From: Escherichia coli
GTDB lineage: Bacteria; Pseudomonadota; Gammaproteobacteria; Enterobacterales; Enterobacteriaceae
Direction: 5' to 3' (one strand)
Length of the DNA stretch: 64,000 bases
Assembly: GCF_030013595.1 (NCBI RefSeq)
Contig: NZ_CP122768.1
The position numbers are program-made. Position 1 is the stretch's first letter. Every line of letters starts with the position of its first letter. Below are positions 21,001 through 27,000 of the stretch, in pieces.

Positions 21001-24000
21001 AACGTGTATAGAAATGTGTATAGAATCTATTTTAGAACTCGAGAATGTGCCTTTATTACTGGTCTTGTTGCTTGTTGTATTGTTCCCTTCGCCCGCTCCA
21101 ATTTATCTTCACCTCATCAACCTGTCATTTTTGTTGTATCTGATTTTCTATATTATCTTAATTCAATCGCTTCAGACTTTTCGCAATCGCCGAAATACTT
21201 CCCCATTTTGTTGTAAATAAAAAGCGTTTACGCAATGCAATCCTTTTGTAACAACCCAGGTAAAATACCTTATTTTCAAGTTGTTAAATAAGTGGTTATC
21301 TACGCTTTTAACAAACGATTGATGGAATATTTTATGAAAGGGAAATCTGCATTAACGCTTCTGCTTGCTGGTATATTTTCGTGCTGCACATGCCAGGCGA
21401 CATGGGCAGAAGTGACGAGTGACTCCGTATTTAACATTCTTAATTCCAGGGGGGAAGCAATAGATAAAAGTTATTTATCGTTAAATCCAGATAAGTATCC
21501 TAATTATCGTCTTCTGATTCACTCAGCCAAATTACAAAATGAAATAAAGAGCCACTATACCAAAGACGAAATTCAAGGATTGTTTACATTAACAGAAAAC
21601 ACACGAAAGTTAGCGTTGACGGAGAAACCCTGGGGAACGTTTATTCTTGCTTCTACTTTCGAAGATGACAAAACAGCGACAGAAACCCACTATGATGCTG
21701 TCTGGCTGAGGGATAGTTTATGGGGCTATATGGCATTAGTATCAGATCAGGAAAATAGGGTAGCTGCAAAAAAGATTCTGCTCACCCTGTGGGATTATAT
21801 GTCTACGCCCGACCAGATTAAGCGGATGCAGGATGTCATTAGCAACCCAAAACGACTGGATGGAATTCCCGGGCAAATGAATGCTGTGCATATCCGATTT
21901 GACAGCAACTCCCCCGTGATGGCAGATGTGCAGGAAGAAGGCAAGCCGCAGCTGTGGAACCATAAACAAAATGATGCTTTAGGTCTTTATCTTGATCTCC
22001 TTATACAAGCCATCGACACTGGTACTATTAACGCTGAAGACTGGGAAAAAGGTGACCGATTAAAATCGATTGCGCTGTTGGTTGCTTATCTGGATAAATC
22101 CAATTTCTATATTATGGAAGATTCTGGAGCGTGGGAAGAAGATGCCCGATTAAACACATCTTCCGTTGCACTGGTGACCTCGGGACTGGAACGTTTGTCG
22201 AACTTACTCTCGAAGAAAGACTCTGTTTTTATTTCTGATTTACTACGCGAAGCTAAAGCCAATGAACTGGATGAAACTTTTTCAACAACGAGGTTGAACC
22301 ATCTCATAGATAAAGGGTATGAAAGAATAACGCTACAGCTTGATTTAGGGGGAGAATCCCCTGGTTATCTGGAAAAAGATAAACATTACAGAGAAGCTGA
22401 TGCGGCCTTACTTAATGTTATTTATCCTGCAAATCTTTCAAAGATAAACACCAGAAGAAAAGAGCAAGTTCTAAAAATAGTTAAAAAACTAGCAGGTCCG
22501 TATGGTATAAAAAGATACGAGAAGGATAATTATCAGTCGGCAAATTTTTGGTTCAATGATATTAAAACTGATACTGATGAAAATTCACATGCGAAAAGAG
22601 AAATGAGCTTCATTCCATCAACAGAAGCAGAATGGTTTTTTGACTCATGGTATGCAAAATCAGCAGCAATTGTTTATAAAGAATCAAGAAAAGAAGAGTA
22701 TTTGAATGACTCAGTGCAATTTATGAATAGATCATTGGCCCAAATAACAGGCGAGAATATGATTGGTGCAAATGGCAGGAGCGTACCAGAAATGGCACTT
22801 CCCGAAAGCTATAACTATATCCACAAGTCGGGAACTTTGCATGAAGCGCCAAGCCCTATCATTCCGCTAAATTGGTCGAAAGCTTCAATGACTCTCATGT
22901 TGAAAGAGATGTCCAACCTTATCAATGATGAGGGAATTAAATAGTTTTCATAATGAGGCGGTCCTGGATTAAAAGGACCGCTCAAAGAGAAATCGTAAGG
23001 GAGGTAAAAGTGATCAATAAATTACTGTTAGCTTACCTGATAGGTCTGGTTGTAACATCGACCTTAATATTTATCTTCTCGGAAGAAAAAGTAACATATC
23101 GGTTGTTTGCTGCAGTAATTACAGGGTTGACCTGGCCGCTTAGCCTCATTCCATCCATCATAAGTCTCATAATTCGTAAATCCGACTAACAAGAAATTTA
23201 TATGAACGATTAAGAAAAATAGTGGATTTGCCCCTATATTTCCAGACATCTGTTATCACTTAACCCATTACAGGCCCGCTGCCGCAGATATTCCCGTGGC
23301 GAGCGATAACCCAGCGCACTATGCGGATGCCATTCGTTATAATGCTCGAACGCCTCTGCAAGGTTCTTTGCTGCCGTTAACCCGTCTGGTTTGGGCATGA
23401 TACTGATGTAGTCACGCTTTATCGTTTTCACGAAGCTCTCTGCTATTCCGTTACTCTCCGGACTCCGCACCGCCGTGTTCTTCGGTTCAAGTCCCAACAT
23501 CCGGGCGAACTGGCGTGTTTCATTAGCCCGGTAGCATGAACCATTATCCGTCAGCCACTCCACTGGAGACGACGGAAGATCGTTGCCGAAGCGGCGTTCC
23601 ACCGCTCCCAGCATGACGTCCTGTACTGTTTCACTGTTGAAGCCGCCGGTAGTCACCGCCCAGTGCAGTGCCTCACGATCACAGCAGTCCAGCGCGAACG
23701 TGACACGCAGTCTCTCTCCGTTATCACAGCAGAACTCGAACCCGTCAGAGCACCATCGCTGATTGCTTTCTTTCACGGCCACTCTGCCTGTATGTGCCCG
23801 TTTCGATGGCGGTACAGCAGGTTTTCGCTCAAGCAACAGCGCATTCTGGCGCATGATCCGGTAAACACGTTTGGCATTGATCGCAGGCATACCATCAAGT
23901 TCTGCCTGTCTGCGAAGCAGCGCCCATACCCGACGATAACCATACGTGGGCAGCTCTCCGATAACATGGTGTATACGGAGAAGCACATCCGTATCATCAG

Positions 24001-27000
24001 TGTGACGACTGCGGCGGCCATCCATCCAGTCATCGGTTCGTCTGAGAATGACGTGCAACTGCGCACGCGACACCCGGAGACAACGGCTGACTAAGCTTAC
24101 TCCCCATCCCCGGGCAATAAGGGCGCGTGCGCTATCCACTTTTTTGCCCGTCCATATTCAACGGCTTCTTTGAGGAGTTCATTTTCCATCGTTTTCTTGC
24201 CGAGCAGGCGCTGGAGTTCTTTAATCTGCTTCATGGCGGCAGCAAGTTCAGAGGCAGGAACAACCTGTTCTCCGGCGGCGACAGCAGTAAGACTTCCTTC
24301 CTGGTATTGCTTACGCCAGAGAAATAACTGGCTGGCTGCTACACCATGTTGCCGGGCAACGAGGGAGACCGTCATCCCCGGTTCAAAGCTCTGCTGAACA
24401 ATTGCGATCTTTTCCTGTGTGGTACGCCGTCTGCGTTTCTCCGGCCCTAAGACATCAATCATCTGTTCTCCAATGACTAGTCTAAAAACTAGTATTAAGA
24501 CTATCACTTATTTAAGTGATACTGGTTGTCTGGAGATTCAGGGGGCCAGTCTAAATAGAATCGAAAAAGAGAATAAAATATATGCAGGGAGTAACAAAAC
24601 ACTCGCAGTGCGTTAATGTGTAACTAACAAATATGATTTTTATTGAAAATAGTCACCAAATAAGTGTTATAAGAAATACGGGGTATGTTTAAGTAAAACA
24701 TATCAACAGTTGCAATTCTGTATATGGACAGGATGACTTACTACTGTAAGTGGCTGATAGCTATTCGCTCATAACAAAATCATTATTTTATAAATAGGAA
24801 TCATCACTTTTTAATCATGTTTTTATTGCAAGTTTATGGAGAATGAGAATATGGAATAAGGAGATGAAACATGATTGAAGAAGGGCTGTTACTTCCAATG
24901 AATGTTTTGCTTCAAGGACAGAAGTTAACCCTACTGGATCCTGAAATGTGGTTCTTACGGGGAAATGAAAACAAGGATGTAACCCTTGTTATTACGATTG
25001 GTAATAACCACCAAAAATTAATGGTAGTGGAAGACATATTACTGCTCATTGACCGAAGCCAAATTGAGGTAACTGCAGGGAAAGTAATTTATCATCCACT
25101 TCGCATTGATATCCTGAGTAAATTATTAGCTTTTATAGATGAATCAACGGGGAGTGTGGAAAGGGAACACCATGAGTTGTTTGCTGATGCCTTGCCCTTT
25201 GCATCAGAAGTTGTGCTATTCAGTAAAGTTGCAAGTGAAGCCTGGTTTTTAGCCACTTATCTGAGCAGCGATAATATTAATGCAATTCTGTTTCAGCATC
25301 TAAGAAAAACAGAATGCTATAAACTGGTTCGCTATTTATTATCGCAATCGCTCATACAGACTTCACTCTATGATCTTGGTGAGCTTTACGGCGTATCGTA
25401 TTCACATTTTCGCCGTTTATGTAGTTATGCATTGGGTGGTAAAGTTAAAACGGAATTATGTGGCTGGAGAGTTGCCAGAGCAGTGTTGGAAATCATTGAA
25501 GGAAACAGTGATATGACAACTATTGCGCATAAATATGGCTACTCATCCTCATCACACTTTTCAGCCGAAGTAAAAAGCCGGTTAGGAAAAACACCGAGAG
25601 AACTATGTAAAAAGTTATGAAAATAAAATTACGTATTACTATTATATTAATTTCAGCCTTATGCATTTTTAATGGATTATTGACTCCTGGTGCATATGCC
25701 GCAACAGCGAATGGATACGTAGCAAATAAAGAAAATCTACGTAGTTTTTTTGAAACGGTTTCATCATATGCGGGTAAGCCTACAATAGTAAGTAAGCTTG
25801 CCATGAAGAAACAGATCAGCGGAAATTTTGATTTAACCGAACCCTATGCCTTGATTGAACGCCTGTCGGCGCAGATGGGACTTATTTGGTACGATGATGG
25901 CAAAGCTATTTATATCTATGACTCATCAGAGATGCGTAATGCGCTGATTAATCTGAGAAAGGTATCGACGAATGAGTTTAATAAATTTTTAAAAAAATCG
26001 GGTCTGTATAACTCTCGTTATGAAATTAAAGGGGGCGGCAATGGTACTTTCTATGTTTCGGGGCCACCGGTTTATGTTGACCTGGTCGTTAATGCTGCGA
26101 AATTAATGGAGCAAAACAGCGATGGCATCGAGATCGGACGCAATAAAGTAGGGATTATTCACCTGGTCAACACATTCGTTAATGATCGGACTTATGAATT
26201 ACGTGGCGAAAAGATAGTTATTCCTGGCATGGCAAAAGTACTATCGACGTTGTTAAATAATAACATTAAGCAAAGCACTGGGGTTAACGTACTTTCTGAA
26301 ATTTCAAGTCGTCAACAACTAAAAAACGTATCACGTATGCCTCCTTTTCCTGGTGCTGAAGAAGATGATGATCTACAAGTAGAGAAAATAATATCGACAG
26401 CTGGAGCGCCAGAGACTGACGATATACAAATTATTGCATATCCTGATACCAACAGTTTACTTGTTAAAGGAACAGTATCTCAGGTTGATTTTATCGAGAA
26501 GTTAGTAGCTACACTCGATATTCCAAAGCGACACATTGAATTATCTTTATGGATAATAGATATTGATAAGACTGATTTAGAACAGTTAGGAGCTGACTGG
26601 TCGGGCACGATAAAAATTGGATCCAGCCTAAGTGCATCATTTAATAATTCAGGTTCAATTAGTACCCTGGATGGGACACAGTTTATTGCAACAATACAGG
26701 CACTTGCGCAAAAAAGAAGAGCCGCCGTTGTTGCTCGTCCTGTCGTTTTAACACAGGAGAATATTCCTGCTATATTTGATAATAACCGTACTTTCTATAC
26801 TAAATTAGTCGGCGAGCGTACTGCGGAGTTGGATGAAGTAACTTATGGTACGATGATTAGCGTGCTACCACGATTTGCTTCGCGAAATCAAATTGAATTA
26901 CTCTTGAATATTGAAGATGGCAATGAAATCAATTCTGACAAGACCAATGTTGATGATCTGCCTCAGGTTGGTAGAACGCTTATAAGTACTATTGCGCGCG

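Follow-up and report, generated by a model that had tools for sequence, protein, structure and literature searches.

An intact IS2 in the spacer upstream of eivF in the ETT2 island of Escherichia coli, and its relation to the K-12 copy IS2H

IS2 belongs to the earliest insertion sequences to be described, and it transposes, like the IS3 family, by a copy-out-paste-in route that passes through a figure-of-eight and a circle intermediate. One copy, IS2H (insC4-insD4; IS3 family, IS2 group), is found in E. coli K-12 at NC_000913.3 2996361-2997691, in the neighborhood of what is left of ETT2. The mutational attrition of ETT2 was reportedly described by Ren et al. 2004 (J Bacteriol 186:3547). Two later articles (PMC9241512 and PMC6985150) both cite Ren et al. 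2004 on ETT2, and IS elements inserted in ETT2, among them IS1F in eivG, are described as common, as are deletions (PMC6985150). Here we describe an IS2 copy within the ETT2 island of another E. coli strain, contained in a stretch of 64,000 nucleotides of contig NZ_CP122768.1 (hereafter the window; coordinates refer to it unless stated otherwise). Set against this attrition, the window represents another ETT2 variant with an IS insertion, although, unlike in the attrition cases, its IS2 disrupts no gene and accompanies no deletion.

Structure of the element and its insertion site

The window carries a complete IS2 of 1331 bp on the minus strand (23223-24553), which was delimited by direct reading of its ends and by a blastn match to IS2H. 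The first bases of this interval, TGGATTTGCCCC, form the outer end of the right terminal inverted repeat (IRR) at position 23223, and the last ones, GGGGGCCAGTCTA, form the outer end of the left repeat (IRL) at position 24553. The IRR spans 23223-23263 (detected arm 23231-23263, outer 8 bases read directly), a length of about 41 bp that we take to be the one of IS2, and the IRL spans about 42 bp at 24512-24553 (detected arm 24512-24544, outer end read directly). The two repeats are imperfect and display the canonical outer ends of IS2, TGGATTTGCC... and ...GGCCAGTCTA. The length equals that of the reference IS2 (1331 bp), and the comparison with IS2H shows near-identity, with 4 substitutions over 1331 positions (1327 identical; 99.6% by blastn).

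Both transposase genes of the element are present, on the minus strand, and overlap. The first, orfA (insC; 24097-24462), encodes a protein of 121 aa with the Pfam domain HTH_Tnp_1, identical to K-12 InsC4, while orfB (insD; 23234-24139) encodes 301 aa with the Pfam domains rve, rve_3 and HTH_21, including the rve/DDE integrase core, and likewise equals its K-12 counterpart, InsD4. The overlap harbors the A6G motif (A AAA AAG) for programmed -1 frameshifting that joins the two frames, at 24139-24145 on the minus strand, which reads CTTTTTTG on the plus strand, with CAAAAAAG on the minus strand at 24139-24146; elements identical to this one carry the label 'programmed frameshift' in RefSeq. The interval 23223-24553 is confirmed as an intact, canonical IS2 which, judging from its sequence, is apparently functional.

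Directly outside the element, a 5-bp AATAG is found on each side (23218-23222 and 24554-24558), as in a simple IS2 insertion, and the interval 23218-24558 corresponds exactly to IS2 plus both copies. The empty site was rebuilt in silico by removing IS2 and joining the two flanks through one AATAG. This sequence is contiguous, with its single AATAG, in 577 of 5,426 complete E. coli genomes, and it is 100% identical in strain HCP5S3_I2, whose ETT2 carries the full annotated gene set and shares 99.93% identity with that of the window over 19.5 kb. The AATAG duplication is therefore not a chance match. Six further full-length IS2 copies, inserted within ETT2 or beside it, also display perfect 5-bp duplications. 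A target consensus for IS2, considered on account of blast matches to other IS2 copies that ran 13-27 bp past the IS2 end, was rejected, the similarity of the flanks being only A-rich and due to chance.

The insertion lies in an AT-rich spacer between a GhoT/OrtT-family small ORF on the left (23010-23189, plus strand; Pfam PF10753) and eivF, the gene for an AraC-type ETT2 regulator, on the right (24871-25620, plus strand), both assigned with the annotation of a 99.9%-identical relative. The small ORF is uninterrupted, with its stop codon 33 bp before the IS2 end, and the eivF coding sequence is intact, with its ATG 317 bp from the IRL end, such that IS2 interrupts no gene. The transposase genes run antiparallel to eivF and to the GH15 (ygeQ/ygeP) gene. 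Downstream of IS2, Pfam detects an AraC regulator, a secretin and an HrpJ/InvE-like protein, and the island was recognized as ETT2 by its SPI-1-like eiv, epa and epr type III secretion genes together with tRNA glyU; a tRNA-Gly(CCC) is located at 6970-7043. The initial annotation, which had described a complete IS2 with both termini and a 5-bp direct duplication, placed by simple transposition between ygeQ/ygeP and eivF, agrees with all of these observations. Its location of the element at the ETT2 boundary holds only approximately, given that the insertion lies some 2.1 kb into the island, measured from the glyU-proximal end, and that a 14-kb integrative element sits between glyU and the island. 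Both flanks of the element are colinear with IS2-free relatives, and thus no deletion or inversion is adjacent to it.

The filled junctions, left and right, were absent from all 5,426 complete RefSeq E. coli genomes, around 360 genomes of the K-12 type included. The left-junction 36-mer GAACGATTAAGAAAAATAGTGGATTTGCCCCTATAT likewise matched 0 metagenome contigs, a weak result since metagenome assemblies usually break at IS copies. Considering that the empty site is widespread and that the filled junctions occur in none of the 5,426 genomes, the element represents a strain-specific simple insertion, where 'strain-specific' denotes absence from this set of complete RefSeq genomes. We are nearly certain that a canonical, apparently functional IS2 inserted recently, and independently of IS2H, in the spacer between the GhoT/OrtT-like ORF and eivF; no observation speaks against a simple insertion. 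By analogy with the known pathway of the family, -1 frameshifting at the A6G motif would give the OrfAB transposase, which would form a circular copy of the IS; this circle would integrate into the target with staggered cuts, whose repair would leave the 5-bp AATAG duplication.

Possible effects on eivF

The position of the element upstream of a regulator gene raises the possibility of a regulatory effect, in which 1.3 kb of IS2 inserted 317 bp upstream of eivF would sever regulatory DNA or provide outward transcription, changing EivF expression; transcription that leaves the element at its IRR end could, in addition, enter the GhoT-like gene in antisense direction. We consider such an effect unlikely. 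Although the ends of IS2 are said to be able to supply a -35 element to hybrid promoters, as reportedly in the ampC case of Jaurin and Normark (1983), the end that faces eivF is the IRL, for which no outward promoter element is known. A consensus promoter scan gave no plus-strand promoter-like site across the IS2-eivF junction and the 317 bp up to eivF, the eivF promoter itself being unmapped here, and no site reading out of the IRR end. Regarding the DNA that the insertion split, the empty site does not fold more stably than shuffled sequence (z = 0.43) and a terminator scan at the insertion point found none, so that there is no significant RNA structure or terminator for the insertion to destroy. 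The insertion is probably neutral toward eivF expression.

Relation to K-12 IS2H and origin of the insertion

The initial annotation had also proposed that the element in the window shows the pre-deletion state of K-12, that is, that it is the ancestral copy of IS2H, from which an adjacent deletion removed eiv, epa and epr in K-12-like strains. Part of the evidence is favorable: K-12 does have an IS2 in this neighborhood and is devoid of the eiv, epa and epr genes, its IS2 is located exactly at an ETT2 deletion junction without a target duplication (TTTAT on one side and AACTT on the other, whereas the window copy has its duplication), and the two elements share the 1331-bp length, the terminal repeats, the A6G frameshift site and identical InsC and InsD proteins, differing at only 4 bases. 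However, they occupy different sites, the copy in the window being in the spacer between the GhoT-like gene and eivF and IS2H being at an orgA-to-GH15 deletion junction. One end of IS2H abuts position 22470, which is 752 bp away and within the GH15 gene, and the other abuts position 40753 (orgA/ygeO), not 23222 and 24554, and therefore the predicted coincidence of a K-12 deletion endpoint with an end of the window IS2 fails. The orientation relative to the flanking ETT2 genes is also opposite: in the alignment with the window, IS2H matches in forward direction but its K-12 flanks in reverse, and insCD, which in the window is antiparallel to ygeQ, has the same direction as ygeQ in K-12. Neither junction of the window copy is present in any K-12-type genome; the K-12 junction on the GH15 side (ending ...TTTAGAACTT at the IS2) occurs in 370 genomes and the one on the orgA side in 363. 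Furthermore, the eivF-eivJ segment, including the site that is occupied in the window, had been removed earlier in the K-12 lineage through an IS-free deletion junction that joins 22957 to 33021. A different site and orientation were what the initial annotation itself had named as refuting its proposal, which is thereby refuted, and descent of IS2H from the window copy is extremely improbable.

The true pre-deletion state of K-12 is instead found in strain LD27-1 (NZ_CP047594.1) and in eight further complete genomes, which carry an IS2 in orgA with a TTTAT duplication. This orgA::IS2 resembles the window copy in being a simple insertion in ETT2 that retains its 5-bp duplication, but it is located about 16 kb away (40753-40757), in the opposite orientation, and its IRR-side junction, unlike that of the window copy, matches K-12 at every base. 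The flanks in LD27-1 are 99.96-100% identical to K-12. Since genomes of this type carry orgA::IS2 and keep 4,434 bp absent from K-12, the last ETT2 loss of K-12 was anchored on a copy different from the one described here. The order of events in the K-12 lineage is then as follows: two IS-free deletions and the orgA IS2 were present in an LD27-1-like precursor, and a 4.4-kb deletion anchored on this IS2 took place later, whose endpoint lies in the GH15 gene, at a spot independently struck by IS2 in another strain. A contribution of IS2-anchored deletion to ETT2 decay in K-12, as had been suggested, is supported for orgA::IS2 and only for these last 4,434 bp; it applies neither to the window copy nor to the loss of eivF-eivJ. 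We found no report linking IS2 to the K-12 ETT2 deletion in the searchable literature.

Nested deletions anchored on the window IS2, suggested by many genomes in which the left flank plus IS2 seemed to continue into various other ETT2 genes, were also considered and rejected. The first search had joined non-colinear pieces, and the strains behind these apparent deletions have IS2 elsewhere (GH15 or eivG) and deletions without an IS at the junction; junction-specific searches, with zero matches, also rule them out.

Finally, IS2 occurs in several copies (a median of 4 places per genome), and the junctions are absent from every other genome, but it is hardly conceivable that the assembler misplaced a copy of the repeat here. 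Such an error would not perfectly duplicate a 5-bp sequence of which the empty site has one copy, nor would it yield precise full-length ends whose exact excision restores a sequence 100% identical to that of a relative.

A possible role of IS2 in the erosion of ETT2

Besides being the site of this independent, strain-specific insertion, ETT2 may be a recurrent target of IS2. The element is found at seven distinct ETT2 sites, and three of these are simple insertions in the GH15 (ygeQ/ygeP) gene, two of them separated by 13 bp and the remaining one at 3 bp from the endpoint of the K-12 deletion. Only tentatively do we entertain that ETT2, and the GH15 gene especially, attracts IS2 repeatedly, with independent insertions driving the erosion of the island in many lineages. 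If this were true, the window IS2 would be a fresh example, from which a further deletion could start or which could change how eivF is regulated.

In itself, the window IS2 is ordinary, already known biology, and one more insertion of this element belongs to the routine variation between strains. The stepwise reconstruction of the K-12 ETT2 remnant is a useful by-product of its analysis. In practical terms, the junctions of the insertion, absent from 5,426 complete genomes, can serve as a strain or lineage marker, and its presence is a caution for reading eivF regulation in the strain that carries it.

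IS2 and its surroundings in the ETT2 region

The single IS2 copy in the window occupies 23223-24553 (1331 bp), beginning with TGGATTTGCCCCTATATTTCC, the outer end of the IS2 right terminal inverted repeat (IRR), and finishing with GATTCAGGGGGCCAGTCTA, the outer end of the left one (IRL). A repeat finder placed the arms of an imperfect terminal inverted repeat (33 nt, 79% complementary) at 23231-23263 and 24512-24544. The two reading frames lie on the minus strand and overlap: orfA (24097-24462) matches Pfam HTH_Tnp_1, orfB (23234-24139) matches rve, rve_3 and HTH_21, and an A AAA AAG frameshift motif falls inside the overlap at 24139-24145 on the same strand. 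Compared with IS2H, the K-12 MG1655 copy carrying insC4-insD4, the element shows 4 substitutions in 1331 bases, and its translated InsC and InsD are identical to InsC4 and InsD4. AATAG is found directly outside both ends (23218-23222 and 24554-24558), so that 23218-24558 is exactly IS2 plus the two copies of its target duplication, confirming the initial annotation of an intact IS2. With all the defining features that a sequence can reveal, the element is a canonical IS2 member, and its sole novelty is its insertion site.

In the IS2/IS3 family, the OrfAB transposase is produced by -1 frameshifting and leads to a circularised copy of the element, which integrates with a 5-bp staggered cut. The sequence requirements for transposition are all intact in the window copy, which is predicted to be active; it would have arrived through OrfAB made by -1 frameshift, a circle intermediate and insertion with a 5-bp staggered cut, leaving the AATAG duplication.

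To the left of IS2 lie tRNA-Gly(CCC) glyU (6970-7043), the GH15 glycoside hydrolase gene (21292-22944), of which K-12 ygeQ and ygeP are fragments, a 14-kb integrative element between the two, and a GhoT/OrtT-family small ORF ending at 23189. To the right is eivF (AraC-type, 24871-25620), followed by eivG (secretin), eivE (HrpJ/InvE-like) and the remaining genes of the ETT2 type III secretion island. The insertion breaks no ORF, starting 33 bp past the stop codon of the GhoT-like ORF and ending 317 bp short of the eivF ATG. A promoter scan found no sigma-70-like site in the plus-strand spacer from IS2 to eivF, nor any reading outward from the IRR end, and the empty site (the flanks with a single AATAG) displayed neither significant structure nor a terminator (z = 0.43). 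A regulatory effect of IS2 on eivF is possible but unsupported.

The integrative element (7045-21082), at the 3' end of glyU, is flanked by 19-bp direct repeats (7026-7044 and 21083-21101). Genes for a tyrosine integrase, an AntA-like protein, a D5-type primase-helicase and a ProQ/FinO protein are present, together with a weak HTH_17 match under Pfam's cut-off, so that the element is P4-like or PICI-like. In other strains this tRNA hosts different elements that also bear an integrase.

Origin and distribution of the insertion

Deleting IS2 and one AATAG gave a 160-nt empty-site query, which is found unbroken in 577 of 5,426 complete E. coli genomes from RefSeq and present at 100% identity in the pig isolate HCP5S3_I2. 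Since the empty site is intact in relatives, the window IS2 is a simple insertion that duplicated 5 bp of its target, as had been proposed initially. Both flanks are colinear with IS2-free relatives, showing that this element has no adjacent deletion or inversion. Six further full-length IS2 insertions, located in ETT2 or beside it, were inspected, and every one has a perfect 5-bp duplication.

Using 160-nt queries centred on each IS2 junction, we found neither junction spanned in any of the same 5,426 genomes, with no place reaching at least 80% coverage of either query; the exact left-junction 36-mer had no match in the metagenome contig collection. The absence from complete genomes implies that the window's own genome lies outside that set and that the insertion is strain- or lineage-specific. 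Across 19.5 kb of the ETT2 region the window is 99.93% identical to HCP5S3_I2 (12 substitutions and two single-base indels), and because they differ so little the insertion is probably recent. An early search had returned many strains with an apparent left flank plus IS2 followed by different ETT2 genes; there the tool had joined non-colinear pieces, and IS2 was at other sites.

HCP5S3_I2, otherwise 99.9% identical, lacks the 14-kb integrative element. Relative to this strain the window carries two single-base insertions (28423 and 41592), one at the eivE 3' end and the other in the orgB-like gene (K-12 ygeN), which here forms two overlapping ORFs (41030-41620 and 41535-41801). Whether these are genuine frameshifts or errors of sequencing, the window ETT2 is not fully intact, IS2 aside.

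The K-12 deletion and its LD27-1 precursor

MG1655 2984000-3002000 (locus L001) was aligned to the window. The K-12 flanks run in reverse (L001 6485-12361 matching 46635-40753, and L001 13693-14976 matching 22470-21187) and IS2H (L001 12362-13692) aligns forward to the window IS2, so the two elements are oppositely oriented relative to ETT2; insCD is parallel to ygeQ in K-12 and antiparallel to the GH15 gene in the window. The IRR end of IS2H adjoins orgA/ygeO at window 40753 and its IRL end adjoins the GH15 gene at 22470, which is 752 bp away from where IS2 sits in the window, and IS2H has no target duplication (...TGTTTAT-IS2-AACTTGC...). The proposal that the window IS2 represents the ancestral state of IS2H fails, given the other site (22470/40753), the opposite orientation and K-12 deletion endpoints that do not coincide with the window IS2 ends. 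About 227 bp of the ygeF region, present in the window (46636-46862), are missing from K-12 and LD27-1; K-12 ygeF is annotated as a pseudogene.

Two hypothetical pre-deletion junctions were constructed and searched for, and one was found: strain LD27-1 (locus L007) carries IS2 in orgA, at a site corresponding to window 40753-40757, with its TTTAT duplication intact (...TGTTTAT-IS2-TTTATGTAG...). LD27-1 keeps 4,434 bp missing from K-12 (L007 12082-16515; 10751-16515 with IS2), comprising the 5' part of orgA, eprK, eprJ, eprI, remnants of eprH and epaR (sctT), epaQ, epaP, epaO, an eivJ remnant and the 3' part of the GH15 gene, and is 99.96-100% identical to K-12 in the rest of the region. The orgA::IS2 junction occurs in nine complete genomes (LD27-1 and eight others), and those of IS2H in 370 (GH15 side) and 363 (orgA side). 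This precursor implies that the final ETT2 loss of K-12 was a deletion of everything between the IRL end of orgA::IS2 and a position within the GH15 gene.

The product could have formed by homologous recombination between orgA::IS2 and a second, directly oriented IS2 at the GH15 endpoint, the natural path for a copy-out-paste-in element, or by a one-ended intramolecular event; both would yield the same K-12 product, and the sequences compared here do not separate them. The dog isolate CUVET17-972 carries an independent simple IS2 insertion, oriented like IS2H and bearing a CTGCT duplication, that lies 3 bp from the K-12 endpoint, indicating that this spot is a real IS2 target site.

Other insertions and deletions in ETT2

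Counting that of CUVET17-972, three independent simple IS2 insertions in other strains cluster within the GH15 gene, at 22125-22129 (CGGAG), 22138-22142 (GAAGA) and 22463-22467 (CTGCT, 3 bp from the K-12 deletion endpoint 22470), which may mark a local hot spot for IS2. Elsewhere, IS2 is inserted in eivG of strain ETEC4068 (about 26414-26418, GAGAC) and in ygeH of HCP5S3_I2 (44030).

The larger ETT2 losses of the K-12/LD27-1 lineage run from 22957 to 33021 and from 35201 to 38979, with no IS at either junction. The first (~10 kb; its junction shows a 9-bp alignment overlap) takes out the GhoT-like ORF and eivF through most of eivJ, including the very site held by IS2 in the window, and is also present in unrelated strains of different backgrounds (loci L004 and L008). 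The second (~3.8 kb), found in the K-12/LD27-1 lineage, extends from within epaR (sctT) to within eprH. No paper linking IS2 to the K-12 ETT2 deletion was found in the searchable literature. That K-12 lost part of ETT2 through an IS2-anchored deletion is correct in general terms, but it involves another copy, orgA::IS2, and the last 4.4 kb only.
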